A DNA stretch of 64,000 nucleotides from a virus. The notes beneath the pieces were generated by a model, which saw only the letters and a list, made by a program, of their open reading frames with translations, ran no database searches and was not told where the DNA came from. The position numbers and the translations under genes were made by a program. Location: positions 1 to 64,000 of the IMG/VR virus record IMGVR_UViG_3300027674_000001. The stretch is one strand, 5' to 3'. Shown in pieces: positions 2,628 through 56,646 of the stretch (the stretch's first letter is position 1; the number at the start of each line of letters is the position of its first letter).

Positions 2628-2633
2628 GGGTAC

Positions 2634-2662
2634 TTGACAGGGTACCCTATCCATGGTAGCGT
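2634..2662 (+). promoter_or_regulatory. Sigma70-type promoter P1 (member of the conserved family)
   Basis: TTGACA 2634-2639, 17-nt spacer, TGG-TAGCGT with the -10 at 2657-2662. The -35 lies between complementary arms GGGTAC 2628-2633 and GTACCC 2642-2647. Confidence 0.6.
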
Positions 2663-2829
2663 CCTCCTTAGAGGACTAAAGACTAGCGGGGGTCGCGAGA
2701 CAAAAGGCCCGCCACATCTAAGCTGAGTCCGCCCCGTTTAGTCCTCTCTTGTGATCCCCTGCCGCTCTCCCGGATTCGCCGGAACGGGTGGCCGCCGTCA
2801 TCTACTCTCGGAAGGAAGGTACTCACCCT

Positions 2830-3246
2830 ATGCCCATCGCGAACACCGCCACACACGCCGCCAAGACTCCCGCCGCTCCCAAGCCCCCCAAGGCCGCTGG
2901 CACCAGCGTCAACAAGTCCGGTGCTCCCCGCGCCCCCAAGGGTCCCTCTCTCGTCTGGACCTCTGGCAAGGGGTCCATGGATGCCGTCCTCGTCAACGCC
3001 GCTCGCACTCAGGCCGCCGAGGGCAACGGGCTCGTGTACATTGGCCCGCTCGTGGACTCCCTCAAGTCCAGCCCGCTGTTCGCCGATGCCGTGGCCGCTG
3101 GCACCCTCACCCAGGCCAAGGTGAGTAGCCGTATCGCCAAGCTGCGGGCCTTCGGAGTCATCCTGCCCAAGAGCGGGCGCAACCGCTCCCAGGTGGACGT
3201 TGCGGGGCTCAACGAGGGAGTGGAGGCCGAGCTGGCCGCCGAGTAG
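2830..3246 (+). CDS. Lys/Ala/Pro-rich basic protein (histone-like/DNA-binding candidate), apparently monocistronic
   Basis: ATG 2830 follows GGAAGGAAGG. The N-terminus is AKTPAAPKPPKAAGTSVNKSGAPRAPKGP. The gene is visibly GC-richer than its neighbours. It has its own promoter upstream and terminator downstream. The C-terminus carries VDVAGLNEG. Confidence 0.65.
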   Translation: MPIANTATHAAKTPAAPKPPKAAGTSVNKSGAPRAPKGPSLVWTSGKGSMDAVLVNAARTQAAEGNGLVYIGPLVDSLKSSPLFADAVAAGTLTQAKVSSRIAKLRAFGVILPKSGRNRSQVDVAGLNEGVEAELAAE

Positions 3247-3277
3247 GTCAAAGACCGAGACAGACCATCTCCTCGCA

Positions 3278-3317
3278 AGCCACGGGGTTGTGTACCGCCC
3301 GCCCCGTGGCTCTTTTT
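3278..3317 (+). terminator. Rho-independent terminator
   Basis: 10-bp stem AGCCACGGGG 3278-3287 / CCCCGTGGCT 3302-3311, followed by TCTTTTTC. Confidence 0.7.
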
Positions 3318-3374
3318 CGTCCAGCCAGCGCGTGGGTTCCGGGACGCGGTTCCGGGCCTAGGGCCTTGGGGTCC

Positions 3375-3403
3375 TTGACAGGGACCCCGGCCTGTGGTAA
3401 GGT
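3375..3403 (+). promoter_or_regulatory. Sigma70-type promoter P2 (conserved family)
   Basis: TTGACA 3375-3380, 17 nt, TGG-TAAGGT with the -10 at 3398-3403. 7-bp arms GGGGTCC 3368-3374 / GGACCCC 3382-3388 flank the -35. Confidence 0.65.
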
Positions 3404-3495
3404 GGAACCCGTGCTCAGTTGCTTGATAACGCGGTAGCGATGGGCCGAGGACGACTCGGTGGCATCTGAGCACAATTAAAAACGAGGTGACCCCC

Positions 3496-3786
3496 ATGTT
3501 GCGATTCGTTGACGTGCGAGGGTACGGTACTGATGGCAGGTTCTCTTACTACAACACGGTCACAGGCAAGTATCTAGAACTAGACGGCGATCAGATATGG
3601 GATTCGATGCAAGAGGTAGAAGAGAGTCACACGAGCGACAGATCGGGGGCAGGGCTAGAATACCCGCTTGATCGACTTCAAACGATTACACCCCAATGGG
3701 CATTTATTCAGTCCACAGAAGAGGAGATGCAAGAAGCCATCTATAGATTCTACGGCGTGGGTGCTGTGGTAGGGCAGAGGCCATGA
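3496..3786 (+). CDS. Hypothetical protein
   Basis: ORF with ATG 3496 about 9 nt after ACGAGG. GTG 3487 is an alternative start. It is the first gene after P2. Confidence 0.55.
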   Translation: MLRFVDVRGYGTDGRFSYYNTVTGKYLELDGDQIWDSMQEVEESHTSDRSGAGLEYPLDRLQTITPQWAFIQSTEEEMQEAIYRFYGVGAVVGQRP

Positions 3787-3989
3787 AAATTATAATCGGT
3801 GGAGTAAATCTCACCATCCCACTCGATCAGCGTATCGACGTAGCGCGGCAAGTGGTGGGCCAGCTAGAGCAGTGCGAAATACTCCCCGTGTTTGAGGGGA
3901 TACCCGATCACGTCAAAGTGTGGATAGCCGATTGGGATGCAGGCGTGAAGAAGAGAGCACTTCGCCAGATGCTGAAGGGGGGACGTTGA
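3783..3989 (+). CDS. Hypothetical protein
   Basis: 68-aa ORF. Its start overlaps the upstream stop (ATGA), suggesting translational coupling. Confidence 0.5.
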   Translation: MKIIIGGVNLTIPLDQRIDVARQVVGQLEQCEILPVFEGIPDHVKVWIADWDAGVKKRALRQMLKGGR

Positions 3990-4405
3990 TGTCAATTTCT
4001 GTCAACCGCACCGGGTACCTAGTCACGTACTCTATCCCAGTCCGCGAGCTTGGTAAGGGTCCAGCCCCGCACGATGGCGGATACCGTACCTACGCCTGCG
4101 CCGACGAAGCCGCACTGGCCGCGCTTATCCTCCGGTTAACTGGACGTGAACTGAGTACGTATCCGAGACGGTCCACACACCCACAGTGGAAAGAAAAGAG
4201 CGAGAGCATCATGTGGACTATCCCCGGAGTCCAAATCGCGCACCCGCTCCATATCTACTCGACGAGTACAGGATGCGAAACGGAGATAGCGACAGTGTGC
4301 GGTCATGTGAGATTCGGGACGACACTCTCATGTGTCAAGGATTACGGGCACAAGGGCCAACACAACTACGGTAGAACCAAAAGGCACACGGCCCCGTGTT
4401 CGTAG
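3989..4405 (+). CDS. Hypothetical protein
   Basis: In-frame ATG 3989 overlaps the upstream TGA. The listed 3920 start would overlap the previous gene by 70 nt. Confidence 0.5.
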   Translation: MSISVNRTGYLVTYSIPVRELGKGPAPHDGGYRTYACADEAALAALILRLTGRELSTYPRRSTHPQWKEKSESIMWTIPGVQIAHPLHIYSTSTGCETEIATVCGHVRFGTTLSCVKDYGHKGQHNYGRTKRHTAPCS

Positions 4406-4680
4406 CCACCGCAGCTAAGATCCACTCGGCTCGTTGTGGGGGATTCGCTACCGCTCCCATCGATGATCTCATCTTCGCCGCGAGCCATGACGGTTGGTGT
4501 CCATCATTCATCCACTGGCTGAGAGAGAATCGATATCTCCGGTGGCCCAACACCCCGGACGTACTCCGATACTACGGATGGGTGGCGAATGAAGATCTCA
4601 CCATGGCGCGATTCGACACGGTACCCGGGTGGAAGTTTGCGGCGGCGTTGGATGAGATGGAACCAAGGAGTAACTGTTGA
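4396..4680 (+). CDS. Hypothetical protein
   Basis: 94-aa ORF in a tightly packed co-directional array. Confidence 0.5.
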   Translation: MFVATAAKIHSARCGGFATAPIDDLIFAASHDGWCPSFIHWLRENRYLRWPNTPDVLRYYGWVANEDLTMARFDTVPGWKFAAALDEMEPRSNC

Positions 4681-5207: not shown

Positions 5208-5671
5208 CTCTCCTCCGCGCCCGTGGCCCTCTAACAGTCTCCCAAATCGCGGATGCCATCTATCCCAATGGTACTGGGTTCATGGAAGATTGTGGCCTAA
5301 GCGCGGGAGACAAGATAGACCTAGAACTGTCTCGCCTACAATACTCGGTAGAAGAGATAGGAAGAGATGACGAGGGCGAAGGCATCTACTCCGCTACCAC
5401 TCCCGAACGGTACGCGGAACTACGCAAGATTGCCCGCTGCGACATGGCACAGTGGCTTAGGGATGTTCGCTCTAAGATGCGGCGGAAGGCTAGGGACACA
5501 GACCAGGACCTATATAACGAGATTGATTACCACCTGTACCGAGCCACCCTTAGCGAGCGCCGCCATATCATGCGAGCGAGTAAGCGGCCAGTGGGGGAGA
5601 TGGTAGCCGAGTTTAACGCGAAGGGTTTAAGGTGTATTAATGACATAGAGAGGGAGAAAGGTACGCTATGA
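5180..5671 (+). CDS. Hypothetical protein with an N-terminal winged-helix-like segment
   Basis: 163-aa ORF. ILTLLRARGPLTVSQIADAIY resembles a MarR/wHTH recognition region. Weak call. Confidence 0.5.
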   Translation: MDSDQSAILTLLRARGPLTVSQIADAIYPNGTGFMEDCGLSAGDKIDLELSRLQYSVEEIGRDDEGEGIYSATTPERYAELRKIARCDMAQWLRDVRSKMRRKARDTDQDLYNEIDYHLYRATLSERRHIMRASKRPVGEMVAEFNAKGLRCINDIEREKGTL

Positions 5672-5997
5672 CAATCGACGAAGCCATCGCCCAGTGCGAT
5701 ATCCGCAATTACCGGAAAGATGTCAGATGGGTACCCAACCCCAATGAACCAGTCGAGTTTATCCCTGTGTACAGTGTAGATAGCGGCCAAGCAGATATCA
5801 GCGGGCCAACCGATGCACTATTAATGTTATTTATGTGCGGTGTAAGTAGTGTGGACGGTAATGATGTGATCCGCACTATCCGTACTCGTGACTATATATG
5901 TAATCCTGTAGATATCATGGTGATTAAGGTTGAGAGTACAACTGACAAAGAGTCAAGCCAAGGTAACATCATCTGGCGTCGGCCTACATCAGTATGA
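5668..5997 (+). CDS. Hypothetical protein
   Basis: 109-aa ORF with ATGA overlaps at both ends. Confidence 0.5.
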   Translation: MTIDEAIAQCDIRNYRKDVRWVPNPNEPVEFIPVYSVDSGQADISGPTDALLMLFMCGVSSVDGNDVIRTIRTRDYICNPVDIMVIKVESTTDKESSQGNIIWRRPTSV

Positions 5998-7418
5998 TAG
6001 TAGTCCCTGGTGCTGGCCGCCTACCTAACCTCGTGCTGCTTTGTGGGGAAGCTCCCGGCGCACAGGAAGCCGAGAAGGGAGAGCCATTTATAGGACGTAG
6101 CGGGCAAGAACAAAGCTGGTATTTATCCCGCCACAACCTTAACGTCCGCAACTGGTATCGTACCAACGTCTCGAAATGCTGGCATGGTGATAATCGCGAC
6201 CCCTCCCGCGAAGATATCGAGGAGTGGACTCCTGTACTCCTCTCCGAAATAGAACAATGCTCCCCCTCGCTCGTGATAGCAGTCGGGAGGTTCGCCGCTC
6301 GATTCTTCCTCGGGGAATCGGTAGAGATGGATATGGTTCACGGGCTACCCCATCGCCCCGGTGCCTTCGATCCCTCGCGTATATCCCGCGCGCCCAAGGG
6401 GTGTGTTATCCTGCCCGTGACGCACCCAGCTAGTGTCTTCCACGGCTCCGATGACAAGAAGAATGATATCCGGGCGCTGGTAGACTGGGATTACTCTCAG
6501 GCCGCGCAAGTGTTAGCTTTGATTAAATCCGGCCGCGCCCACGAGATAGACTACCGTGGTGACGAATATCCCAATCCGCACTATGAAGACGTATCGGGTC
6601 AATTCATCTCTGATTACATCGCCGCTAAAGTCACTCTCGGCGGGGTGCAATCCATGGCGCTTGACACCGAGGGAGTACCGGGCGCCGAGTGGTCTATACA
6701 GGTGAGCTTAGACCCAGGTGAGGGATTCTTACTCAGGTGCGCTCGCGATGACTTCCAGGTGGGGATAGCGGCATTACAGGAGGCGGTAGATAAAGGTATC
6801 TTGGTTATAACCCATGACGCCTCCACCCCTGCCGGCTGCTGCTACGATACCATCATGGCGCGCGGTATGGGGCTCGATTTATCCCGAGCATCCAACATCT
6901 TCAACACGATGACAGCGCTGTACCTATTACGTTTCGAGCCCCAAGGACTCAAGCCCGCAGCTTGGCGCTGGTGTGGCATGCGCATGACAGACTATGAGAG
7001 CCTAATCGGCGACATCGGCTACCGGAAGCAATTCGAGTACCTATGTAGGGTACTGGATTACCGAGATTCCCCTTGGCCTACAATTGAACCTCGAATGGTG
7101 CACGAACACGATGGCACCTCGCGCGTATATTCGCCCCATGGCATAGAGCAATCGGCCCGGAGTATCGTTCTCGATATCGCCAACGGTAAGCTAGACAAGG
7201 ACGGGAATCCGCCCGATCCGTGGAAGCGATGGAAGCAAGTCCTACCGGAGATTAGAGAGATTACCTCGCGGGTGCTAGGCCCCATGCCTACAGGTAATCT
7301 AGGGGATATACCTCTAGAGGACGCCACTATCTACGCAGCTAAAGATGCCGACGCTTCCTTACGACTGTATTACGCGCTGTCGGATGAATTGCGGCGACGG
7401 GATCTAACACAGGCATAA
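5994..7418 (+). CDS. Family-4 uracil-DNA-glycosylase-like domain fused to a PolA-type 3'-5' exonuclease domain (N-terminal part of a split DNA polymerase)
   Basis: UDG4-type motifs GEAPG..E...G.PF.GRSG and THPAS. Exonuclease motifs MALDTEG (ExoI) and YAAKDADAS (ExoIII). The ORF ends at the usual exo/pol domain boundary. Confidence 0.85.
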   Translation: MIVVPGAGRLPNLVLLCGEAPGAQEAEKGEPFIGRSGQEQSWYLSRHNLNVRNWYRTNVSKCWHGDNRDPSREDIEEWTPVLLSEIEQCSPSLVIAVGRFAARFFLGESVEMDMVHGLPHRPGAFDPSRISRAPKGCVILPVTHPASVFHGSDDKKNDIRALVDWDYSQAAQVLALIKSGRAHEIDYRGDEYPNPHYEDVSGQFISDYIAAKVTLGGVQSMALDTEGVPGAEWSIQVSLDPGEGFLLRCARDDFQVGIAALQEAVDKGILVITHDASTPAGCCYDTIMARGMGLDLSRASNIFNTMTALYLLRFEPQGLKPAAWRWCGMRMTDYESLIGDIGYRKQFEYLCRVLDYRDSPWPTIEPRMVHEHDGTSRVYSPHGIEQSARSIVLDIANGKLDKDGNPPDPWKRWKQVLPEIREITSRVLGPMPTGNLGDIPLEDATIYAAKDADASLRLYYALSDELRRRDLTQA

Positions 7419-7424
7419 ACAGAC

Positions 7425-8525
7425 ATGCCAGCTTACTACAACGAGATAGACCCATTCGTGGCCAATTGGCTAGAGTGGCTAGTTAAAGTTGAGATGATCG
7501 CGGATGGCGTGGTAGATAGGCGCTCTATCAAGGACGTTATGCCAAGTGACTTGAACGGGTTTACTCAGTGTCATTTCTTCGCGGGTATAGGCGGCTGGTC
7601 GTATGCGTTACGGTTGACTGGATGGCCCGATAATAGACCCGTGTGGACAGGCTCATGCCCATGTCAACCGTTCTCAGGTGCAGGGCTAATGCTGGGAGAG
7701 AATGATGATAGGCACCTCTGGCCAAGTTGGTTTGATCTCATTGCGCAGTGCCAACCTCCAATCATCTTTGGAGAACAAGTTGCAAGCCCGCCTGGACGTG
7801 AATGGCTCGATACTGTATCAGCTAATTTGGAAGCATTGGACTATGCCATCGGGGCGGCGGATCTGTGCGCTGCGGGCATCGGTGCCCCGCACATCAGGCA
7901 ACGGCTGTGGTTCGTGGCCGAGTCCACGAGCGACCGATACGGGGAGACGCGGATGGAAGCCGAGTCCCGGAGAGGGCAATGTACAACTCGACAGGATGGC
8001 AGCGATGTGGCTAGCGGGGTATCCAACACCAAACACCCGCGATCACCATGCACAGGGGGCAACCCACAACACGAAAGCTCAATCGTCGTCACTGGCAACA
8101 AAGTTAGAGAAGAAAGCGCGGCCTATGGGCTGGCCAACCCCGATGGCAGGAACACCGAAACAGAAGGGTTACAACGAAGCCGGCAACACGGACAGCAGCC
8201 GAAAGACGGTCGCACTATTATCAGGTTGGCCCACGACTCGTTCCAGCGATGCAGAGAAGAACGTGCGAACGATAGAAGGGAGCGCCCGCGAGATGGCAAG
8301 GAAGGGCACAGCGCAGGACTTGAACCAAGCGGCGACACTAACCTATGGGCCTTGTGCGAATGGCTCCCATACTCAGATGGTAGATCGCGGCCAGTTGAAC
8401 CCGGCACATTCCCGTTGGCTCATGGGATTCCCCGACGTGTGGGACGATTGCGCGGATATGGTAACGCGATAGTACCTCAAGTCGCCGCTGAGTTTATAGG
8501 TGCATATCTGGATACAGAACAATGA
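7425..8525 (+). CDS. DNA (cytosine-5)-methyltransferase with an anomalous reading-frame structure
   Basis: This frame carries motifs I FFAGIGG, IV PCQPFS, VI FGEQV, VIII QRLWF and X GNAIVPQV. The central third is Arg-rich and low-complexity, while the overlapping ORF 7702..8472 carries family-typical target-recognition motifs. See the finding on this gene. Confidence 0.7.
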   Translation: MPAYYNEIDPFVANWLEWLVKVEMIADGVVDRRSIKDVMPSDLNGFTQCHFFAGIGGWSYALRLTGWPDNRPVWTGSCPCQPFSGAGLMLGENDDRHLWPSWFDLIAQCQPPIIFGEQVASPPGREWLDTVSANLEALDYAIGAADLCAAGIGAPHIRQRLWFVAESTSDRYGETRMEAESRRGQCTTRQDGSDVASGVSNTKHPRSPCTGGNPQHESSIVVTGNKVREESAAYGLANPDGRNTETEGLQRSRQHGQQPKDGRTIIRLAHDSFQRCREERANDRRERPRDGKEGHSAGLEPSGDTNLWALCEWLPYSDGRSRPVEPGTFPLAHGIPRRVGRLRGYGNAIVPQVAAEFIGAYLDTEQ

Positions 8526-9802
8526 CTGGCCGCCACACCACCATGGAAGAGTGTATGGCGGTACTCCCGATATTCGAGGAGATGCAGCGGAATGGTATGC
8601 CCGCATCCCGATCATACTTCGAGGCCCTATCCGCCGAGATGTGGCAGCGTATGTCCACGGTTCAACGACGTATATCCACGGAATACTTCGATGGCCGCCC
8701 GTTCAATCCCAATTCCACCAAGCAAGTGGCAACCCTTCTCCGTCGTCGCGGACTCGTGGGGCATAAGCGGACCCAAGCGGGCGCTGTATCTACCTCCGAG
8801 AAGTCCATAGGGCACTTGCAATTCACGGACCCCGCGATTCATGACGTATTCGAGTGGCGGGAGTACGAGCATATCAAAGACGCATTCTGTCAACCCATCT
8901 TAGGTAAATTCGACCCCGCTAACCCGGACGATATCCAACCCATCCGGTGTGTTATCCGTACTACTCGCATCCCTACGCGGCGGATAGCTGCTAGTGACCC
9001 TAATCTACTCGCTATGCCGGTGCGCACCGAGGAAGGACGTAAAGTGCGAACCGGGTTCATATGCCCCGAGGGTGAGGTATTCGGAGCTTGGGACTACTCG
9101 CAATTAGAAATGCGCTGCATGGCGCACGAATCGCGCGACCCCCTCATGTGTCAACTGTTTTACGAGAATCGAGATATCCACACCGAGACAGCGGCTCGAA
9201 TATTCAAGATACCGCTAGATCAGGTAGATAAGTTCAAGCATCGTATCCCGGCGAAAAATTCGGGATTTGGAATTCTATATGGGATACAAGGCGAAGGACT
9301 GTTAACCCAACTCCGGATGCTCGGCATCGAGGGATGGACTAAAGAGTCTTGCCAAAAACTAATCGGTGACTGGTTGGACGTGTTCCAAGGAGTAAAAGAG
9401 TACATCGCGCGGACAGCGGTAGAGGTGGCGAAAGTCGGCTATGTGCGGGACTACTCAGGAGCCTATCGCTACATCCCTGGAATCCGCCACTACGACCGCA
9501 AGATAGCCGCAGAGGCCGCACGGTTAGCAGTGAGTCAACGTATCCAGGGCTTGGCGCAAACCATGATACAGCGAGCGATGATTTATCTCCGGCCCCAGAT
9601 ACGCTCTATGCAGGATAGTGGGCTTAACGTTAAGTGGCGCCTTCAAGTGCATGACGAATTACTTAAGTCGTTCACCCCGGACTTGTGGGAGCCATTAGAT
9701 TACATCGTCCGGGATGCGTTAGTTAACCACAGCGGGATAGAGTTAAGAGTGCCGATAGAGTGTGAAGGTAAGTACGCCTCTAGGTGGTCTGATCTTAAGT
9801 GA
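8522..9802 (+). CDS. Family-A DNA polymerase, polymerase domain only (C-terminal part of the split polymerase)
   Basis: Motif A DYSQLEMR, motif B RIPAKNSGFGILYG, motif C QVHDEL. The ATG overlaps the methyltransferase stop (ATGA). Confidence 0.9.
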   Translation: MTGRHTTMEECMAVLPIFEEMQRNGMPASRSYFEALSAEMWQRMSTVQRRISTEYFDGRPFNPNSTKQVATLLRRRGLVGHKRTQAGAVSTSEKSIGHLQFTDPAIHDVFEWREYEHIKDAFCQPILGKFDPANPDDIQPIRCVIRTTRIPTRRIAASDPNLLAMPVRTEEGRKVRTGFICPEGEVFGAWDYSQLEMRCMAHESRDPLMCQLFYENRDIHTETAARIFKIPLDQVDKFKHRIPAKNSGFGILYGIQGEGLLTQLRMLGIEGWTKESCQKLIGDWLDVFQGVKEYIARTAVEVAKVGYVRDYSGAYRYIPGIRHYDRKIAAEAARLAVSQRIQGLAQTMIQRAMIYLRPQIRSMQDSGLNVKWRLQVHDELLKSFTPDLWEPLDYIVRDALVNHSGIELRVPIECEGKYASRWSDLK

Positions 9803-9812
9803 GGTTAAGGCT

Positions 9813-10493
9813 ATGCCCTACGCTAATATAGAAGTTGGAAGAATGAAAGCCAGAGAGAGGTATCTCAGAAACAAGGAAGCTATTGACTCTGCATCAAGAG
9901 AATACTATTGGAAGAATAAAGAACGAATAAACTCCAAGAGGAGAAAACCAATCCAAAGTGCAAGCGAAAGAGCCGACCATTTAACTGCCAAACTAAGGGC
10001 TAGGTTCCAGAGTTACCTACGTCGTAATAAGGTAACTGGGTGCTTAGAGTGGATGGGCTATAAAGATGTTCACGGATATGGTAAACTGTGGATAGGTAGC
10101 CAGAAAGATGGCACCCTTAGAAAGGAAATGTCTCATCGCGTTGCGTGGATTCTAGCTGGTAAAGAGATTACACCAGAGAAACCATTTATCCTGCACAATT
10201 GCCCATGCGGCGACAATCCCTCGTGTTGCGAGATCGCGCATCTATGGGATGGCACAGCAGCAGACAATAATACCGATAGATCAAGAAAGGACAGAAGTAG
10301 ACGCAGTGAGCTAGGACTCCCTAGAGGTGTTCAACCAAATTACACTCAGAAGGAATCTTACCAAGCCCGTATTCAAGTGGGCAGTAAGCAAATCTACATC
10401 GGATCGTATAGCTCAATCGAAGAGGCTAGGCAAGCTGTAGAAGCTGCCGGCGGATGGAGACAAGAAGAGAGCGGCGGCGATGCCACCACGTAA
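9813..10493 (+). CDS. HNH homing endonuclease with a C-terminal AP2-like DNA-binding domain (free-standing mobile gene)
   Basis: GCLEWMGYKDVHGYG...SHRVAW...LHNCPCGDNPSCCEIAHLWDGTAADN is an HNH_3-type signature. YQARIQVGSKQIYIGSYSSIEEA is AP2-like. The gene is visibly AT-rich relative to its flanks. The start was moved to ATG 9813. Confidence 0.85.
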   Translation: MPYANIEVGRMKARERYLRNKEAIDSASREYYWKNKERINSKRRKPIQSASERADHLTAKLRARFQSYLRRNKVTGCLEWMGYKDVHGYGKLWIGSQKDGTLRKEMSHRVAWILAGKEITPEKPFILHNCPCGDNPSCCEIAHLWDGTAADNNTDRSRKDRSRRSELGLPRGVQPNYTQKESYQARIQVGSKQIYIGSYSSIEEARQAVEAAGGWRQEESGGDATT

Positions 10494-10635
10494 CCGTCAC
10501 CGCCACTCTATCCCCTCGCGCCGTCGTAATCGCGGGTACCGATTTCTCCCCCTCGTGGCGTCCGTGCTAAGTTGTCATCTTGTGATCTGGTCAACCCGTA
10601 GATCGGGGATTCTAGGCCCCCCAAGAAGACGGGCC

Positions 10636-10665: not shown

Positions 10666-10674
10666 TTTGGGGCG

Positions 10675-10875
10675 ATGAGCGAGCGAGTAGAGGACCGACA
10701 AAACGGGGCAGGGTGCCACCTGTCACGGGCAGCGGCTCGGCAACTGGGCGATGACCCGGATACACGGGCGAACCCGGATACCGTGGCATGCGACAAATCG
10801 GTCGCCGTGGCACACGGACAGCGGGAGACGGTGGACGCATACTCTCGCCGCTTGCCCATCGCGTTGCACCTTTGA
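10675..10875 (+). CDS. Possible small protein (66 aa) on a very short leader
   Basis: The ATG lies 10 nt after the P3 -10 element. No Shine-Dalgarno sequence. Composition is not clearly coding. Alternatively this region is a 230-nt untranslated leader. Confidence 0.3.
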   Translation: MSERVEDRQNGAGCHLSRAAARQLGDDPDTRANPDTVACDKSVAVAHGQRETVDAYSRRLPIALHL

Positions 10876-14807: not shown

Positions 14808-14867
14808 CAACCGTACAACCGTACAACCGTACAACCGTACAACCGTACAACCGTACAATGTACAACG
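14808..14867. repeat. Tandem octamer repeat (CAACCGTA) x6 perfect, plus two degenerate units
   Basis: Perfect copies at 14808, 14816, 14824, 14832, 14840 and 14848, then CAATGTA and CAACG. Located in the intergenic gap ending about 20 nt before ATG 14889. Confidence 0.95.
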
Positions 14868-16257: not shown

Positions 16258-16323
16258 CGCCCGGGGTGGAATCGCTGTGGTGCCTGAGTGTGCCGGCCGG
16301 CGGGACCTCCCGGGCGTTTTCTT
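16258..16323 (+). terminator. Possible terminator (long-loop hairpin plus T-tract)
   Basis: CGCCCGGG 16258-16265 pairs with CCCGGGCG 16309-16316, followed by TTTTCTT. The large 43-nt loop makes this weak. Confidence 0.3.
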
Positions 16324-18771: not shown

Positions 18772-19143
18772 ATGAGCGACGATTTAACCTGCAACCCGAT
18801 ACCGATACATGACACACCTATAACCCCCACGCCAATCTACCGTGGAGAGTTATCCGAGGTACGCTCCCAACTCTCCGAGGTGCTAGCCAAGTTACAGATA
18901 GCCCCAGCTGGTGCCAGTGCCACACCTGCGCCGGTATTCTCCGTACTAGACTTCATCACGCTAATGTCCACCATCGAACGTACCGCGTTGGACGTGGCAT
19001 GGCAGAGTGTACCCAAGAACGCACCCACCGCGCAATTGACGGATTGGTTGACGCGGGCGGAGGTGGTAGCCAAGTACATGCGGCGGCGATTGGGGTTACC
19101 GGAGAGTGTGGTGCAAGCGCCGGTGCCGCCCATTACTACGTAA
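18772..19143 (+). CDS. Hypothetical protein (small terminase candidate by position only)
   Basis: 123-aa ORF immediately upstream of the large terminase gene. No motif support. Confidence 0.45.
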   Translation: MSDDLTCNPIPIHDTPITPTPIYRGELSEVRSQLSEVLAKLQIAPAGASATPAPVFSVLDFITLMSTIERTALDVAWQSVPKNAPTAQLTDWLTRAEVVAKYMRRRLGLPESVVQAPVPPITT

Positions 19144-19153
19144 CATTTGCCCT

Positions 19154-20884: not shown

Positions 20885-20892
20885 CGCCCACA

Positions 20893-20979
20893 ATGACCCT
20901 GCGACGGTTCTTCGGCAAGTCTCCCCCGCTGGTAGGGCGCCCCTCTCCCGTCCTGATGACCAGCGGGGGAGCTTTTTAA
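20893..20979 (+). CDS. Candidate 28-codon leader micro-ORF spanning the terminator hairpin
   Basis: ATG 20893 lies 9 nt after the P5 -10 element. The ORF reads through both arms of the hairpin and stops at TAA 20977-20979, inside the T-tract. Purely positional evidence. Confidence 0.25.
   Translation: MTLRRFFGKSPPLVGRPSPVLMTSGGAF
20921..20977 (+). terminator. Rho-independent terminator/attenuator
   Basis: 13-bp stem CTCCCCCGCTGGT 20921-20933 / ACCAGCGGGGGAG 20959-20971, followed by CTTTTT. Confidence 0.7.
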
Positions 20980-21008
20980 TTTCACCCCGTCAACCCTTGT
21001 CAATCCGC

Positions 21009-21422
21009 ATGCGCATCCCCGACATCAACGTAGTCGTCAACTTCTCCGAAGAGGACCGGGATTTAATCCGCTCGGTACTCATCGGGCTAACCAGACTGGA
21101 GATCCTAATGTCAAAGAATACCGATGCACTCGCCGCCTTGGAAGCCATTGAAACCACTCTCGCCGCCGATGAGGCTCTAGAAGAGAGCGACCTTACCGCG
21201 TTGACCGCTGAGGTTACCGCGTTGAAGGCTCAGCTGGCCACCGCCACCGCCGAAGATAACTCCGCTGAGATCGCCACGACTACGGCCGCGATTACTGCAT
21301 TGGATGCCAAGATCAAGGCGAGTATTGCAGCGGCGCAGGGAGCACTACCGCCAGCGCCACCCGTGACCCCTCCTGCTACAATATTGCCGCAGGGTATTGA
21401 CAAGGGGCGCGCTCCGGCCTAG
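21009..21422 (+). CDS. Ala-rich coiled-coil protein
   Basis: ORF with ATG 21009 (TTG 20997 is an alternative start). Long Ala/Leu/Thr heptad-like region and a Pro-rich tail. Confidence 0.5.
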   Translation: MRIPDINVVVNFSEEDRDLIRSVLIGLTRLEILMSKNTDALAALEAIETTLAADEALEESDLTALTAEVTALKAQLATATAEDNSAEIATTTAAITALDAKIKASIAAAQGALPPAPPVTPPATILPQGIDKGRAPA

Positions 21423-49774: not shown

Positions 49775-49795
49775 GAGGGTGAACGGTAGATTACC

Positions 49796-50650
49796 ATGGG
49801 CAACGCATACCTTCTGAGTTCTAAACTATCCGACGCGGCGACGATTGTGGCATCGGATGCGGTAGGTAACGCGGGTGCGGCCAACCTGTTGATATCGCGT
49901 CCACGGTTGAAGTATCGCTCGATAACCGCCACCCCTAACTTGGTACTGGACTTTGGGGCTCCCACGACAATCGATACCGTAGTCCATGGGTTTATCAACG
50001 GGATGGCGGGTGACACGTTTACTCTCCGTATGGCCAGTGCCCAAGGTAAGCTCACCGATGGCACGGCAGAATTTAATGCGGCGGCAATCGCTCAACCCGT
50101 GTGGCCTGTAGGGAGCAACCTAGCCGCGTATGATCAGATGCATCGTGGATATAAACTCCCATCGGCTCAAACCCTCCGATGGGCTCGAATCGATTACGGA
50201 TTCTCGGGTAACTCAGATGGATTCGTGGACATGGGACGGCTCATCCTCGGTAAGAGGATCGAGCCCAGTATTAGCGTTAAGGGTGGGTGGACCCCCGGTG
50301 GACTAGAGGCCATCGCGGAAACTGTGGACTTGAGTGGTGAAGAGAGCCCGCGTCAAATGGGGACTAAGAGAGATTTGCAAGCCACGTGGCACGATGTAAC
50401 CCAATCGGAGATGAACGCGATTTACGAGATGTTGTTAGAGAGAGGGAGTGCTAAGGATCTCGCTATGGTAATTGACCCAGACTCTATCTACCCGATGAGT
50501 CAAACAGTAATCGGGCGGGTTAAACAGAAGTTTACATTCCCCCAGACGATTAATACCGGGAGTGATCCATTGGGTAGCGGTGGACGTAGTGGGCTACACT
50601 TTACTGTGGTGGTGATAGTCAGTGAAATGGCACCCTTGCTGATGAATTGA
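49796..50650 (+). CDS. Tail-tip-associated protein
   Basis: 284-aa ORF in the tail module. No motif recognised. Confidence 0.5.
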   Translation: MGNAYLLSSKLSDAATIVASDAVGNAGAANLLISRPRLKYRSITATPNLVLDFGAPTTIDTVVHGFINGMAGDTFTLRMASAQGKLTDGTAEFNAAAIAQPVWPVGSNLAAYDQMHRGYKLPSAQTLRWARIDYGFSGNSDGFVDMGRLILGKRIEPSISVKGGWTPGGLEAIAETVDLSGEESPRQMGTKRDLQATWHDVTQSEMNAIYEMLLERGSAKDLAMVIDPDSIYPMSQTVIGRVKQKFTFPQTINTGSDPLGSGGRSGLHFTVVVIVSEMAPLLMN

Positions 50651-50663
50651 CAATCAAGCCAAA

Positions 50664-51080
50664 ATGTGCTATGGTCCTGCTGTGATAGACGCTGAATATC
50701 TTAATGGAGGCGAACCTGGTTTATCCCAGACTCTGGCCCCTTTGCGCCAATCTACCACTTACACGTATGGAAGAGATCTGCGATTAATGGCGTGTCATGT
50801 GATTGATTTGCTAGATAAATCTGGTAAAGCTAATTACTGCTCTAGAAAGTGTTTTGGCGAGAGTAAACGTGCCGGTATGCCTGGTCGTATTTATTGGAAG
50901 ACCGCTATGGACAATTATTTTGTCAAATATGCTCGCAGGGGAATGGTGTTATCTGATATGGTTCCTGTGTTGTCATCGTTGACGGAGTTTGCAGGTATGC
51001 GTGTTACCGTCCCGGCTTTGAGACGAAGATACAATAAACTGAAAGATGCCGGCGTACTGTTACCTCAACTAGGAGAGTAA
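50664..51080 (+). CDS. Hypothetical protein in an AT-rich island
   Basis: 138-aa ORF, visibly AT-richer than the flanking tail genes. Confidence 0.45.
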   Translation: MCYGPAVIDAEYLNGGEPGLSQTLAPLRQSTTYTYGRDLRLMACHVIDLLDKSGKANYCSRKCFGESKRAGMPGRIYWKTAMDNYFVKYARRGMVLSDMVPVLSSLTEFAGMRVTVPALRRRYNKLKDAGVLLPQLGE

Positions 51081-51084
51081 ATCT

Positions 51085-51984: not shown

Positions 51985-52002
51985 GAAAGCGAGACATTAC
52001 CG

Positions 52003-52731
52003 ATGAGCGAGATAGATCACCCGTTCCGCAATGCCTTCAAATGCCGTCTGTGGGTTAAAGGAACCGCATGTCTGTGCCCTGCATGGTTATCAGTCACACA
52101 GGAGCACGATAAGTCCACTGGCGAACCGTCGAGCCACGTCACTGGGTGTGCGTTTCAACTACTCCCGTGGTTACTGACAGGCCCCATCGTCAAGTCATCG
52201 CAGGTATTAGATGAGGTAGGGGCAATGCGCAAGGACGTTCAACATGCCCAGAGAATAGTCGGGGATTTGAGCGTCCTTGCGAGGATAGGTGTAACTATGT
52301 TAGCAGCCGCCAGGGATTCGGGTAATGGACAAAATCTGCATCTCACCAAGCTCTTCTCCAGGAGGGATGAAATCCTGCCAGAAGATAATCGAAGTGGTAC
52401 ACCAGCCAGTGACAAGCGCCTCGCAAGTGGGGATCAAGCTACCGAGACACCGGAGCTGGACTTGGCCCCCACTAGCCGTATTGACGAACACGGCAACCTC
52501 GATAACGTTGCCACCGTTGCCGAAGAGGGAGATTCCCGCTACTCGTCCAGTGACGTAGATGCCAGGAGTCTGGGCGTGGGCGGTAGCGGTACTGGTGAGA
52601 GCGCACAGGGTGAAGATAGTAATGGCGATGGCGCGGACGGCGCGGACGGCACGGACGACGGTTCTCCTAGTCATGGTCATGGCTTGTTTCCTCCTTTGTC
52701 TATACCTTACAACCCCACACCATACGCCTAA
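52003..52731 (+). CDS. Hypothetical acidic protein
   Basis: 242-aa ORF. Its C-terminal Gly/Asp-rich tract is encoded by 9-bp repeats (GGCGCGGAC). Confidence 0.45.
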   Translation: MSEIDHPFRNAFKCRLWVKGTACLCPAWLSVTQEHDKSTGEPSSHVTGCAFQLLPWLLTGPIVKSSQVLDEVGAMRKDVQHAQRIVGDLSVLARIGVTMLAAARDSGNGQNLHLTKLFSRRDEILPEDNRSGTPASDKRLASGDQATETPELDLAPTSRIDEHGNLDNVATVAEEGDSRYSSSDVDARSLGVGGSGTGESAQGEDSNGDGADGADGTDDGSPSHGHGLFPPLSIPYNPTPYA

Positions 52732-52740
52732 AGGTGGCCA

Positions 52741-55548
52741 ATGTCAATACCACGTAGAATCGTCCTCGCTCTTCCTCTCGCCCTAGCCCTGTTCGCCGGT
52801 ATCCCCGCTTCCTCTCTCTGGGGCCAGATTTGCCCTCAACCCATTACTCTCCGCGCCGGTACATGTCTCGCTGGTACCACCTCATGCTCGACTAAAGGTA
52901 ACACTCTCACCTTCTCCGATATGGACGCGAATCTTATAGATGTCGATGCCCTGTGTAACTCTCTCGTCCCTGCTACTCCCACCACTCGCGGTATCTCCGT
53001 CCAATCAATCACGTACAACGTCAAGGACCCAACTTACGGTGCCCTAGGTGACGGTGTAACCAATGACACCGCTGCAATCCAAGCAGCCATTACCGCTGCG
53101 GGTATAGCAGGAGGCGGTACCGTCTACATCCCCGAGGGCACCTATAAGATATCAACCCTCACATCTACCGCGTTGGGTGTGTACATCATGGGGGCTGGCA
53201 ACAACGCAACCACCCTCACATCCACCGCCACCACCGGAGATATCATCGCATTTGGCAATATCTCCTCAGCCTACACTCCCTGTGGTGGCCTTCGTAACGT
53301 CGCGATTAAGTCCAGTGTCACCCGTACATCTGGCGCCGCTCTCACCATCGACGGTTGCCAGAATGGGTGGTTTGAAGGGTTATTCATCGCTCCCACCCAC
53401 GGTGACGGTATCCATATCGCCCCTACCAACCATCTCGCCGCCAACCTCTTCATCCGAGATAGTATAATCAATCTCACGGGCAACGGGTTCGTAGGTATCC
53501 TAATCCAAGGCGGTAATGATAGATTCATTCGCTCCCTATCGATCGATGGGGGGCTCGGTACTGGTGGCGCTGCCATCGAAATCCAGAACTCTGGCGGTGA
53601 TTGGGTCACTGACACCGAAACCGCGCGATTCGACTATGGGGTGTGGATCAACCCTGGTACAGGACAATCCGTCACTTGGGGCAACATGTATAACGTTCTC
53701 GCCGACACCAACAATATCAACGGGATTAGGATCGCGGCGACGGGCTCCGGGTCTATCTCTGCCGAAACGTTTACATCCGTCTGGACGAGTACGAATGGAC
53801 CCGGAGTGGCGACAGGGCGAGGCATCTACATAGGTGGCGGTGCAGCCGGTCTAACCTTCATCGCTCCCCGAGTCATCAACAATGGCGGCCACGGTATCGA
53901 GATTGCCGGGAGTACTGGAATAACCATCTCGGGCGCACGAGTATCGAGCAACGGGCAAGCCGCGAGTAATACGTACGACGCTATCAACGTCAATTCCTCC
54001 GTTGGGTTCTTTAGAATCCAAAACAGCGATCTACCGGGCGCGGGCGCATCATTCTCCGCTGGCCAACGCTACGGAGTAAATATCGCTGCCGGCTCCGATA
54101 ACTACATGGTAACGGGTAACGATTTAACCGGGAACATGTCTGGGGGGGTGTTCAATGCCCCTGGCCTCGCTGCCACCCGTAAGGTATGCGGTAATTTACC
54201 GTTTGACGCTACGTGTGTGGATCTCCCCCCATCCGCCAGCGTCACCGATGCCATGCTGGTCAGTGGGTATTCCGGGGTAGGCGCGTGCGGGAGCCATACA
54301 TGGGCTAGCACCCTCAATCGTAACGCTATCCAAACCTGTACCCAACCTAACTACACTGATCTAACGGGGGTATTACCCAACCCTAGCGCATCCACCCTCG
54401 GCGGTATCGAGTCCCTAGCCGCTGTCGCGAGTAAATGGATTAACACTATTTCTACCAGTGGCGTACCGAGTGCAACCCAACCAGCGTTTACCGATATCTC
54501 CGGTACAGTGGGCGCGGGCCAACTACCCAACCCTTCAGCATCTACTCTAGGTGGAGTACAATCCTTGGCATCCTCGGCATCCAAGTGGATTAATCAGATA
54601 TCCACGAGCGGTGTACCGAGTGCTACTCAGCCCGCTTTCACCGATATATCTGGTGTAGCAACTGGGGCACAGCTACCTAACCCATCGGCTACTACACTAG
54701 GCGGTGTTGAGTCCTTGGCTACCGTAGCCTCGAAATGGATTAACACCATCTCCACCTCCGGTGTACCAAGTGCAACTCAACCAGCATTCACGGACATTAG
54801 CGGTGCCGCGTCCACCGCTCAAATCCCTTCGGTGGTATTCGCATCCGGCACCGACACTGTAACCAATACTTCCACCCAAGTCCACATCACCAATACCGAT
54901 GCGTCGGCTAACCCGCCATTCTTCTACTGTACCCACAATCGTAGTGCGGGGCCTCTCTTGGGTGGCGACGGGGTATGTGGATTATATGGGGATTTTCTAA
55001 ACAGTGCCTCCGCTACTAAGGAAGCGTTCTACATCCACGGTAACGTTGTCAGCCCTACATCTGGCTCTGAGACGGCACAGGTGCTATTCGATGTCATGGG
55101 CGGGGGTGGTACGGTTGGATCGGTAGCGTCTATGCTCACGTTGGCGGGCGGCGCATCACCAATAAATACTCTAACGGGCCACCTAGTCTCTGGTGCAGTT
55201 AGCACTAATCCCACCGTGGCATGCACTGGCACCGGCACATCCCCACCCGCTCCATCTATCGCCGGTACCGATACAGCGTTTATTATCACGATGAACACTG
55301 GTACCGCGCCGAGTAGTTCCGGCACATGCACTACTACATTCGCGCACGCCTACGTAACCAATGCCCCCGTTATGGCGTGTATGCTGGTGTCGGGTGCGAG
55401 CGCTTGGGGGAATACGGCATCGTTGGAATTAACCACCGAGAGCGTATCCGCGCCGGTGTTGACATGGACTAATGCTGTAGCGGGGGTACTCGGGATACTT
55501 ACAGGATCGTCAAGTTACAAGATGAGTTGTATTATCGTGGGTCGATAA
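52741..55548 (+). CDS. Tailspike/depolymerase-like protein with a pectate-lyase-3-type beta-helix
   Basis: YNVKDPTYGALGDGVTNDTAAIQAAI...GGGTVYIPEGTYKIS is the Pectate_lyase_3 N-terminal signature. 935 aa, last gene of the plus-strand structural block. Confidence 0.8.
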   Translation: MSIPRRIVLALPLALALFAGIPASSLWGQICPQPITLRAGTCLAGTTSCSTKGNTLTFSDMDANLIDVDALCNSLVPATPTTRGISVQSITYNVKDPTYGALGDGVTNDTAAIQAAITAAGIAGGGTVYIPEGTYKISTLTSTALGVYIMGAGNNATTLTSTATTGDIIAFGNISSAYTPCGGLRNVAIKSSVTRTSGAALTIDGCQNGWFEGLFIAPTHGDGIHIAPTNHLAANLFIRDSIINLTGNGFVGILIQGGNDRFIRSLSIDGGLGTGGAAIEIQNSGGDWVTDTETARFDYGVWINPGTGQSVTWGNMYNVLADTNNINGIRIAATGSGSISAETFTSVWTSTNGPGVATGRGIYIGGGAAGLTFIAPRVINNGGHGIEIAGSTGITISGARVSSNGQAASNTYDAINVNSSVGFFRIQNSDLPGAGASFSAGQRYGVNIAAGSDNYMVTGNDLTGNMSGGVFNAPGLAATRKVCGNLPFDATCVDLPPSASVTDAMLVSGYSGVGACGSHTWASTLNRNAIQTCTQPNYTDLTGVLPNPSASTLGGIESLAAVASKWINTISTSGVPSATQPAFTDISGTVGAGQLPNPSASTLGGVQSLASSASKWINQISTSGVPSATQPAFTDISGVATGAQLPNPSATTLGGVESLATVASKWINTISTSGVPSATQPAFTDISGAASTAQIPSVVFASGTDTVTNTSTQVHITNTDASANPPFFYCTHNRSAGPLLGGDGVCGLYGDFLNSASATKEAFYIHGNVVSPTSGSETAQVLFDVMGGGGTVGSVASMLTLAGGASPINTLTGHLVSGAVSTNPTVACTGTGTSPPAPSIAGTDTAFIITMNTGTAPSSSGTCTTTFAHAYVTNAPVMACMLVSGASAWGNTASLELTTESVSAPVLTWTNAVAGVLGILTGSSSYKMSCIIVGR
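54373..54822 (+). repeat. Three tandem 150-bp (50-aa) repeats inside the tailspike gene
   Basis: LPNPSA(S/T)TLGG(I/V)(E/Q)SLA..ASKWIN.ISTSGVPSATQPAFTDISG units start at 54373, 54523 and 54673. Confidence 0.9.
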
Positions 55549-55727
55549 GTTATTTCAACCAGAGGGAAGATGCCGCTTCTTGAAAGCGTTCCATCGCTCT
55601 CTCGCGGCAGCCCACTCTAGGCATAGGGGGCAATTGGCCCCATGTGTGCCCTTCTCGTCCCAGTGCATATGCCCGCGCCCTGCCTGCATTGCCGTCTCTG
55701 CGGCGGCAACTATCATCTCGGTTATCG

Positions 55728-55928
55728 TCACTGTGTCTCCCTCCCAACCATTCGCCGTGTCACCCTAGCCGCCTTCTCCCGGAGACTCGTTACCGCTTTA
55801 TCCCGTGACGCCCTACCAGCGGTATAGCAAGCCAACCCATACGCGAGTATGAGGGTACCGAAGTAGACTAACTCGGCAGAGTGGAGTATGGTGATGATTG
55901 AGCCCATGGGAATTATCCTCCTAGTCAT
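55728..55928 (-). CDS. Small membrane protein (about 60-66 aa), first gene of the leftward transcript
   Basis: Hydrophobic LVYFGTLILAYGLACY segment. The minus-strand ATG at 55928 lies 6 nt after the P7 -10 element (leaderless option). The alternative ATG at 55907 is preceded by AGGAGG. Confidence 0.5.
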   Translation of the reverse strand: MTRRIIPMGSIITILHSAELVYFGTLILAYGLACYTAGRASRDKAVTSLREKAARVTRRMVGRETQ

Positions 55929-55933
55929 GTCTG

Positions 55934-55963
55934 ACACTACCTCACGGGGAGAGTCCCTGTCAA
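55934..55963 (-). promoter_or_regulatory. Sigma70-type promoter P7 (conserved family, leftward)
   Basis: On the minus strand: TTGACA (complement of 55958-55963), 18 nt, TAGTGT (complement of 55934-55939). Arms GAGTCC 55951-55956 / GGACTC 55964-55969. Confidence 0.55.
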
Positions 55964-56000
55964 GGACTCCCATTCGTCCACTACACCACTGCGGCCGCCG

Positions 56001-56020
56001 CTTGTGAAACTTGTCACAAG
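56001..56020. promoter_or_regulatory. Candidate operator palindrome between the divergent promoters
   Basis: CTTGTGA-aacttg-TCACAAG, perfect 7-bp inverted arms, located between P7 and P8. Confidence 0.4.
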
Positions 56021-56060
56021 CTGGTCAGCACCGGGGCACGTGGGCGCGTCTTGGGGGGCC

Positions 56061-56089
56061 TAGACAGGGACCCCCTTCTGTGGTACGCT
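56061..56089 (+). promoter_or_regulatory. Sigma70-type promoter P8 (conserved family, -35 variant TAGACA)
   Basis: TAGACA 56061-56066, 17 nt, TGG-TACGCT with the -10 at 56084-56089. Confidence 0.55.
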
Positions 56090-56095
56090 CCTCCT

Positions 56096-56530
56096 ATGCC
56101 CCGCTCCAGCGCTGCCGCGACCCTCGCTCTCGAGCCCGAGCCCGATATTCTCTCCCTCTCTCTCGCGCGCGTACCACCCATCGCCTTAGCCGCTGCTACA
56201 CCCGTGGCGGCTGCTGGAGCGGGCCATGACTCCCCTCTCTTGCTCATCGCCGAGCTAGACCATGTAATCGCGGAGATGACGTACCATGGGCTGTCCCGGG
56301 CCACGGGGTTGAGTCGGAGCCATATCACCGGGATACTCAAGGGCCGGCGGAATTGCACCGTGGCCTATGCGGAGAGGTTGGCGGTAGGACTCGGGGTGAG
56401 TACGGCTGAGCTATTGGCATACTCGGGGGCTAAGAGGGTAGGCTACCTGGCTACCTTGAACGGTGGCAGGGCTGGCGGTAAGAAGGCTGGTAAGGCTCCC
56501 GGTAAGTCCCGTCGTAAACGGGCCAGATAG
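56096..56530 (+). CDS. XRE-like helix-turn-helix regulator, probably leaderless
   Basis: LSRATGLSRSHITGILKGRRNCTVAYAERLAVGLGVSTAELL is HTH_XRE-like. ATG 56096 lies 7 nt after the -10 element. Basic C-terminal tail. Confidence 0.6.
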   Translation: MPRSSAAATLALEPEPDILSLSLARVPPIALAAATPVAAAGAGHDSPLLLIAELDHVIAEMTYHGLSRATGLSRSHITGILKGRRNCTVAYAERLAVGLGVSTAELLAYSGAKRVGYLATLNGGRAGGKKAGKAPGKSRRKRAR

Positions 56531-56616
56531 CCCCTAGATAACTTTCTCGCCGTAACCAAAGTCTCAATGATGCCATACACTTACGAGGAATTGAGCGATT
56601 TGGGGGTTGAGGGTCC

Positions 56617-56646
56617 TTGACAGGGACCCTGGACGGGGGGTACTCT
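56617..56646 (+). promoter_or_regulatory. Sigma70-type promoter P9 (conserved family)
   Basis: TTGACA 56617-56622, 18 nt, TACTCT 56641-56646. 7-bp arms AGGGTCC 56610-56616 / GGACCCT 56624-56630. Confidence 0.6.

Follow-up and report, generated by a model that had tools for sequence, protein, structure and literature searches.

The 64,000-nucleotide stretch of viral DNA analyzed in this work (positions 1 to 64,000 of IMG/VR record IMGVR_UViG_3300027674_000001, hereafter called the window) carries a dispersed family of predicted promoters in which the −35 box is enclosed by a short inverted repeat with the core GTCC-N7-GGAC. The window covers most of a phage genome of ~69.6 kb that was assembled as a circle from soil metagenome data (ENA ERZ923212, contig k127_275921). 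In silico evidence gives good support to the prediction that these elements are strong promoters for the housekeeping sigma factor of the host (sigma70/SigA type). The inverted repeat is real and conserved as sequence, and the claim that it forms a covarying hairpin is unsupported. The explanation that we favor, tentatively, is that the elements are promoter-operator modules, in which a dimeric helix-turn-helix (HTH) regulator would bind GTCC-N7-GGAC centered on the −35 box.

A dispersed family of predicted sigma70-type promoters

A first-pass annotation of the sequence had placed elements of this type at nine positions, P1 to P9, and all nine coordinates were correct. A tenth copy, P10 (AGTCC TTGACAG GGACC), is present at 64880 of the same genome, just past the end of the window (L116, 17493-17553). 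It apparently lies within the 3′ end of a called 185-aa gene, and its orthologue is found at 17167 of the related contig L117, described below.

Searching the window for TTGACA-N17/18-TAnnnT yielded 10 matches, compared with 0.56 ± 0.80 in shuffled sequences, and none of 100 shuffles reached 10. Members of the family account for eight of these matches, P8 being absent from the count because its −35 box reads TAGACA. The remaining two, at 50647(+) and 52747(−), are devoid of arms. They are promoter-like sites of the form TTGACA-N17-TATGGT inside the tail-gene region (50647-50675 on the plus strand and 52719-52747 on the minus strand), and the latter would run antisense to the start of the tailspike gene. 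The core CCTTGACAGGGAC, with at most one mismatch, occurs six times in the window where 0.10 occurrences are expected, and within the window GTCC-N7-GGAC is found at these promoters only. The spacer that separates the −35 box from the −10 box is 17 to 18 nt long in all ten copies, six of which also have TGn before the −10 box.

Each copy is located upstream of one or several genes and oriented with them. An ATG is found 5 to 9 nt past the −10 box in five copies (P3, P6, P7, P8 and P9), arguing that the corresponding mRNAs are leaderless; the predicted leaders of P1, P2 and P5 are 80 to 125 nt long. The promoter reading of the first-pass annotation was thus borne out in silico by geometry, enrichment, position and orientation relative to genes, leaderless ATGs and conservation in relatives.

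The elements differ in their arms and in the genes that they precede. P1 (2627-2662, plus strand; −35 box at 2634-2639 and −10 box TAGCGT at 2657-2662) has the arms AGGGTAC and GTACCCT around TTGACAGG, an 8-nt loop. The stop codon of the upstream methylase gene abuts its 5′ arm, and its leader would be 88 to 125 nt long. P2 (3368-3403, plus strand) reads GGGGTCC TTGACAG GGACCCC, with 7 bp between the arms, and its −10 box TAAGGT is preceded by TGG. It is predicted to drive the DNA-replication operon, with genes from 3496 onward and the DNA polymerase at 5994-9802. The 5′ leader of this operon (3410-3495) has a predicted long-range stem (−31.5 kcal/mol, z = −2.4) that ends just before the ribosome-binding site of gene 3496. 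P3 (10629-10665, plus strand; ACGGGCC TTGACAG GGACCCC) has mismatches at arm positions 3, 6 and 7 and a −10 box TAGTCT, with an ATG at 10675, 9 nt downstream. P4 (16368-16404, plus strand; CTAGTCC TTGACAG GGACCAC; −10 box TACGCT) has a 4-bp core dyad and two mismatches, and its operon extends through the large terminase gene (19106-20641).

P5 (20848-20884, plus strand; GGTCC TTGACAC GGGCG; −10 box TACGCT) has the 5′ arm and no 3′ arm. P6 (21397-21425, plus strand; TTGACAA ... TAGAAT), inside the 3′ end of gene 21009-21422, is armless, and the leaderless ATG at 21433 opens the first of two genes coding for XRE-like proteins. P7 (55934-55970, minus strand; GGGAGTCC TTGACAG GGACTCTC; −10 box TAGTGT), with 6 bp plus a G·U and a G-C pair, diverges from P8 and is predicted to drive two small minus-strand genes (55928-55555). 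P8 itself (56054-56089, plus strand; GGGGGCC TAGACAG GGACCCC; −10 box TACGCT) combines an imperfect −35 box with a G·A mismatch at arm position 3, and the leaderless ATG at 56096 opens the second XRE-like gene. Lastly, P9 (56610-56646, plus strand; AGGGTCC TTGACAG GGACCCT, 7 bp; −10 box TACTCT) has a leaderless ATG at 56653, and its operon contains a gene for a UvrD-like helicase (57374-58924).

The arms had been described as fully complementary in P1, P2, P7 and P9, with one mismatch each in P3, P4 and P8, and the 3′ arm as lacking in P5 and P6. This description holds for P2 and P9 (7 bp each), for P7 (6 bp, then G·U and G-C), for P8, with its single G·A, and for P5 and P6. The 7 bp of P1 form only with an 8-nt loop, and there are three mismatches in P3 and two in P4.

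The inverted repeat is conserved as sequence and does not covary

Relatives of the phage were found via homologues of the XRE protein encoded behind P8. Three contigs from soil metagenomes, L117 (69 kb), L118 (26 kb) and L119, are syntenic with the window, with protein identities of 50 to 80%. The proposed search of related genomes for the motif revealed seven further copies in these contigs, at orthologous positions, that keep the promoter geometry and the leaderless ATGs; orthologues of P1 to P6 are not among them. With the relatives included, the consensus is RRRGTCC-TTGACAS-GGACCCC. The contigs differ around P7: between the orthologues of P7 and P8, L117 holds ~4.4 kb of extra genes (5500-9750) where the window has 100 bp (55963-56061), and L118 lacks the whole P7 module. 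The L117 insert contains a minus-strand HTH_31 gene and four armless, promoter-like sites of the TTGACC type. The UvrD-like helicase of L117 is cut down to a 93-aa fragment that is followed by an RtcB gene.

The first-pass annotation had argued that complementarity of the arms is maintained by compensatory changes, and hence that selection acts on pairing. We analyzed the ten copies from this genome and then the 17 copies obtained by adding the seven from the relatives; 14 of the 17 are standard copies, of which seven are in the window. Among the ten copies, pairing amounted to 67.8%, versus 63.1% in shuffles (51/500), and the covariation score was reached by 32 of 500 shuffles. Exact permutation of the 3′ arms among the seven standard window copies gave p values of 0.01 to 0.04. 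The evidence for covariation is thus marginal when the window copies are taken alone, and it was lost once the relatives were added. With 17 copies, pairing was 69.9%, the figure for shuffles being 68.8% (173/500), and 125 of 500 shuffles reached the covariation score; permutation with the 14 standard copies gave p values of 0.08 to 0.13.

Inspection of the individual positions agrees with this outcome. At arm position 5, the pair is G-C in eight copies, A·C in five and A-T in one. The A-T pair of P7, previously read as a compensation, is the sole such case among the six copies with a 5′ A, the other five having an uncompensated A·C. The A-T pair of P9 at position 7 fares no better, as its two orthologues have G·G and A·C. 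Position 3 has an identical G·A pair, likewise uncompensated, in P3, P8 and L119, and P1 (AGGGTAC / GTACCCT) is the only truly compensated variant. Because covariation vanishes with the relatives, complementarity is a property of the conserved palindromic consensus and not the result of compensatory change.

Conservation of the sequence itself is strong. Positions 1, 2 and 4 of both arms are invariant in the 14 standard copies, and position 3 is T-A in 11 of them. The information profile shows equal conservation for the arms and the −35 box, and values near zero for the adjoining, randomized spacer. The family is also a cautionary case, in that seeming compensation among a few paralogous copies was gone once orthologous copies were included.

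A candidate operator centered on the −35 box

Conserved arm sequences in 14 copies, next to a randomized spacer, are the pattern expected for base-specific contacts with a protein rather than for pairing alone. The lack of partner-specific covariation and the tolerance of particular mismatches in the arms also speak for recognition of the site as DNA. The dyad also has the geometry of an operator for an HTH dimer: the half-site centers of the GTCC-N7-GGAC core are ~11 bp apart, the symmetry extends to 19 to 21 bp, and the half-sites are conserved beside unconstrained flanks. Classic operators of HTH dimers, such as those of lambda and 434, match in size (15 to 21 bp), in half-site spacing (~11 bp) and in having an uncontacted center of 7 bp. 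As P5, P6 and the four TTGACC-type sites of the L117 insert are devoid of the dyad, it appears to be an add-on for a subset of promoters. Strong dyads are found at the divergent P7 and P8, which have no co-directional gene immediately upstream.

In the mechanism that we propose, the 15- to 21-bp dyad around the −35 box, with its center of symmetry on an A of TTGACA at about −32, would serve as the operator. A dimeric HTH regulator would bind the GTCC and GGAC half-sites, whose centers are ~11 bp apart, in competition with region 4 of sigma. Since binding at the −35 box should exclude sigma region 4, repression would be the likely effect. A single protein would in this way switch off or tune every dyad-bearing promoter together, and P5 and P6, which lack the 3′ half-site and stand at the head of the portal-to-tail operon, would escape such control. 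We infer from these features that a protein binds the dyad, which protein this is and that the effect is repression.

The most likely binder would be the XRE-family HTH protein of 144 aa encoded at 56096-56530 (plus strand). In each of the four phages, the gene for this protein is preceded by a dyad promoter. The HTH with its recognition helix (TYHGLxRATGLSRSHITGxLKGRR) is invariant among the four, whereas the N- and C-terminal parts of the protein diverge. As this protein would be made from the dyad promoter P8, we propose that it is also self-regulating. The second XRE-family HTH protein, of 123 aa (21433-21804, plus strand), encoded behind the armless P6, is an alternative candidate. No similarity was detectable when the two XRE proteins were compared with each other. 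PDB sequence searches with both were uninformative and returned no solved relative of the 56096-56530 protein, and a Pfam search of the small genes downstream of the promoters revealed no further DNA-binding candidates.

A second candidate operator is present in the vicinity. Between the divergent P7 and P8 lies a perfect palindrome, GCTTGTGA-N6-TCACAAGC (TTGTGA-N6-TCACAA; 56000-56021), which is unique in the genome, identical at 28 of 28 positions in L117 (9920-9947), present in L119 (368-392) and absent from L118. It resembles the binding sites of CRP and Rex, matching the core of the former, TGTGA-N6-TCACA, and departing at one base from the consensus of the latter, TTGTGAA-N4-TTCACAA. This palindrome may be the site of a host factor or the true XRE operator. 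Since L118 has the dyad without the palindrome, the dyad is the only candidate site common to all four loci, which would slightly favor it as the XRE site.

Several observations weigh against the operator model. The palindrome adjoins the XRE gene in three of the four phages and could be the XRE target instead of the dyad. The left half-site of the dyad is more degenerate than the right one. P1, which is perfectly complementary with different arms and in a shifted register, fits selection on pairing better than a fixed half-site, and partner-specific pairing was nominally significant (p = 0.01 to 0.04) for the window copies alone. A rule by which early promoters have the dyad and late ones do not fails, because the core dyad is present in P4, the promoter that leads to the terminase gene. 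Lastly, the comparison between phages leaves the orthologues of P1 to P6 outside.

If the operator model is correct, one protein controls most operons through a −35-centered site, a compact arrangement and a possible synthetic promoter-operator part. The invariant XRE recognition helix and the 17- to 21-bp dyad form a testable pair. For this uncultured soil phage lineage, the analysis also provides a regulatory map of ten predicted strong promoters, three canonical terminators, two HTH regulators and two candidate operators.

Occurrence of the motif outside the lineage

A 17-mer scan of IMG/VR returned four contigs, none of which shares a protein with the window. One of them, the viral contig L003 (IMGVR_UViG_3300033144_003160), has an identical 21-mer, GGGGTCCTTGACAGGGACCCC (10733-10790), followed 17 nt later by a −10 box. 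This predicted promoter lies ahead of a 15-gene tRNA array. A second promoter of L003, GGGTCCTTGACAG at 6063, is without the 3′ arm. In L002, the 17-mer match (691-707) is the anticodon arm of a tRNA-Asp(GTC). Mimicry of a tRNA anticodon arm by the elements (5-bp stem, 7-nt loop, equivalents of U33 and A37) was judged to be a by-product of the TTGACA sequence.

Relatives of the helicase in IMG/VR, at ~40% identity, have promoter families of their own that differ from this one, and the portal protein had no match in that database. Relatives of the DNA polymerase (L120, L124 and L125) and of the intein-bearing helicase (L127 and L128) are different phages without the motif.

In representative bacterial genomes, we found 29 scattered, single 17-mer matches, never more than one copy per genome, with arm extension at the level of chance. 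In those genomes, the motif thus represents neither a repeat of the host nor part of a prophage. In five high-G+C metagenome-assembled genomes of Actinomycetota (L036, L041, L042, L044 and L053), the 17-mer is part of a longer sequence conserved among them, CCGGCGACCTGGTCCTTGACAGGGACCCGAGCACTCCAGACTGCTCCAC; this is probably a single conserved promoter or leader of the hosts, with no relation to the phage. A metagenome scan with 4-bp arms fixed and a −10 box required returned 60 unrelated contigs in which arm extension was chance-like, and hairpin promoters of this kind are therefore not widespread.

Alternative explanations for the arms

It is unlikely, in our view, that the arms have no separate function. 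They would then be part of an extended promoter inherited by duplication and perhaps favored by the host RNA polymerase or another single factor, the palindromy being incidental or maintained by mutation, with template switching or gene conversion making quasi-palindromes more uniform. The copies do share more than the two hexamers, e.g., the G after TTGACA and GG at +2/+3, and this applies even to P5 and P6; other phages (L008 and L020) also have promoter families with long shared flanks. The absence of covariation fits as well, and template switching would explain the "compensated" arms of P1, P7 and P9 without selection. However, a palindromic consensus of 6 to 7 bp in a fixed register would arise by chance with a probability that we roughly estimate at ~1e-3 to 1e-4. 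Moreover, conservation of the arms equals that of the −35 box in phages whose spacers and flanks are randomized, a sign that the arm sequence is under purifying selection. Armless promoters coexist with the others in the same genomes, so that the arms are not required by the polymerase. The promoter-like GTCC..GGAC matches of the 60 unrelated contigs and the 17-mer matches of the 29 genomes show no tendency toward longer arms.

A role of the inverted repeat in RNA has also been considered. In the promoter-early stem-loop (PeSL) cassettes of the T4-like phages RB49 and phi1, sigma70-like promoters are combined with G(n)-loop-C(n) stem-loops for which terminator activity was shown experimentally (PMC2839356, PMC4122927), and in one PeSL subclass the stem-loop overlaps the −35 box (PMC2839356). 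By analogy, the inverted repeat would fold in read-through RNA, where it would attenuate, terminate or 3′-stabilize the upstream transcript, and the same DNA would give the −35 box of the next promoter. We regard this as improbable for the present family. It does have a direct precedent in RB49 and phi1 (PMC2839356, PMC4122927), and the predicted RNA folding energies of five window copies are −12.8 to −16.7 kcal/mol, the z scores of P2 and P9 being −3.2 to −3.5. Perfect hairpins of at least 7 bp are depleted genome-wide (16 versus 35 ± 7 in simulations), yet three of the 14 distinct ones are these elements. P1 retains 7 bp with a different sequence, and the hairpin-less P5 and P6 sit where read-through could join the terminase and head-tail genes into a single late unit.

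Nevertheless, the dyad hairpins have no T run or U tract after them in any copy, in contrast with what is expected of an intrinsic terminator. Furthermore, stopping of upstream transcription is already covered at P2, P4 and P5 because ordinary terminators, consisting of a hairpin and a T run, are present there. An intrinsic terminator with a 9-bp G+C stem, GCCACGGGG...CCCCGTGGC, followed by T5 (3279-3317, plus strand; −23.6 kcal/mol), lies ~60 nt upstream of P2, and a terminator-like hairpin followed by T4 (16283-16320, plus strand; −16.8 kcal/mol) lies ~58 nt upstream of P4. Both have the classic terminator-then-promoter layout, separate from the dyad. The third, a strong canonical terminator with a 13-bp G+C-rich stem followed by TTTTTAATTT (20921-20985, plus strand; −31 kcal/mol), is located ~30 to 35 nt past the expected start of P5. 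The P5 leader (20891-20985) has a z score of −3.4, and, judging from this layout, P5 may give rise to a small RNA of ~90 nt or serve gene 21009 as an attenuated leader.

Other features of the family also argue against a PeSL-like cassette. Covariation is absent over the 17 copies, and P3, P4, P10 and three L117 copies have a 4-bp or interrupted stem, with folding energies from −5.7 (P4) to −8.3 kcal/mol. Non-canonical pairs show no strand bias, those of the G·U type being about as frequent as those of the A·C type on the sense strand. All copies have the loop in one fixed register with the −35 box, whereas the stem-loops of PeSLs take five different positions, and P7 and P8 have good dyads without an adjacent co-directional gene upstream. 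Taken together, the separate canonical terminators, the missing U tract and the many weak stems weaken the case for termination at the dyad.

The two types of activity might be united in a bifunctional 21-bp module that would act as DNA by enclosing the −35 box in an operator and as read-through RNA by forming a stem-loop that insulates adjacent operons from each other. Such a PeSL-like "stop-and-start" cassette, in a soil phage lineage without relationship to T4 and possibly portable between unrelated phages such as this one and L003, strikes us as quite unlikely.

We consider it very unlikely that the 21-bp modules are DNA recombination cassettes, i.e., homology patches or recombinase targets for the gain and loss of gene modules, as proposed for PeSLs. 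Modules have been gained or lost near the motif, as exemplified by the ~4.4-kb insert between the P7 and P8 orthologues of L117 and by the lack of the P7 module in L118, and L003, which is otherwise unrelated, carries the identical 21-mer GGGGTCCTTGACAGGGACCCC as well as the second site GGGTCCTTGACAG. However, the former are two indel events only, both within an intergenic switch region, a type of place in which mosaic joints are frequent in any case; 21 bp is very short for homologous recombination; and L003 and the window share no protein.

Two further ideas were rejected, namely, a restriction or methylation site, as the GGWCC sequence that fits the arms (AvaII) occurs 84 times versus 90 expected and is neither avoided nor confined to promoters, and a cruciform or single-strand promoter by analogy with the hairpin promoters of phage N4, as the −35 and −10 boxes are arranged as in a duplex sigma70 promoter and the stems are short.

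Genome and gene content

The window has a G+C content of ~55%, and nearly all genes are on the plus strand. The family-A DNA polymerase is split into a UDG-like and exonuclease part (5994-7418) and a polymerase part (8522-9802), with a DNA methyltransferase gene (7425-8525) between the two and an HNH endonuclease gene (9762-10493) after them. Other genes code for the large terminase, a portal protein, a pectate-lyase-like tailspike, two helicases and the two XRE-type HTH proteins. An open reading frame of 1921 aa in the tail-gene region is the putative tape measure gene. The phage is probably siphovirus-like and not a T4-like myovirus. Profile-library searches, made with the proteins of part of the gene set, revealed no integrase. 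A DNA search of deposited sequenced phages found no close relative, and the best identity of the portal protein was only 38%, to Brevundimonas phages. Rfam and tRNA scans of the window gave no match.

Three other features of the window were recorded. CCWGG is rarer than expected, with 80 sites versus 135 ± 12 in third-order Markov simulations, which suggests avoidance of a Dcm or EcoRII-type site. A tandem repeat of 8 bp, CAACCGTA, is present in 7.5 copies in a short intergenic gap (14808-14866), and a 150-bp repeat is present in 2.4 copies within the tailspike gene (54433-54791).

Comparison with known systems

The element would work like a phage promoter-operator module, and its anatomy resembles that of the PeSL subclass that overlaps the −35 box. 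Operators dispersed in phage genomes include the 17-bp sites of the lambda/434 type that overlap promoters, the C1 operators of P1, the conserved inverted repeats of phiC31 and the stoperators of L5. As in these systems, a short site (13 to 21 bp) is repeated around the genome and overlaps promoter elements, and a gene for an HTH regulator lies nearby. Unlike in these systems, the dyad is exactly centered on a consensus −35 hexamer in every copy, and its binder is only a candidate. In addition, the stoperators of L5 and the operators of P1 are asymmetric, whereas the dyad is symmetric.

Sites for CII of lambda are TTGC-N6-TTGC direct repeats that straddle the poor −35 box of PRE and activate transcription. 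The two arrangements are alike in that short repeats lie on either side of a −35 hexamer, with regulator and sigma on the same stretch of DNA. However, as the repeats described here are inverted and the −35 box is already consensus, repression would be more likely than activation of the CII type.

With the PeSLs of RB49, phi1, PST and nt-1 (PMC2839356, PMC4122927), the family shares multiple copies of strong sigma70-like promoters fused to an inverted repeat made of a G run and a C run, here with the consensus GGGGTCC-TTGACAG-GGACCCC, conservation between related phages and placement at operon boundaries, and one PeSL subclass likewise overlaps the −35 box. The phage described here differs in being a soil phage of ~70 kb that is probably siphovirus-like and not a T4-like myovirus. 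Its elements differ from PeSLs in that the −35 box is always in the loop, in a fixed register, with no AT-rich region upstream and no U tract, and in that canonical terminators are separate from them.

Cluster O mycobacteriophages provide a looser parallel. Their ~70-kb siphovirus genomes have eight to nine strongly predicted SigA-like promoters each, with some leaderless mRNAs, and several copies of a 17-bp dyad, TGTTCGG-N3-CCGAACA, the presumed target of a dimeric protein (PMC4351075). The number of promoters, the genome size, the leaderless mRNAs and the presence of a repeated dyad are thus alike in the two cases. The palindromes of Cluster O are located mostly away from promoters, whereas the dyad described here is found only at promoters, where it encloses the −35 box.

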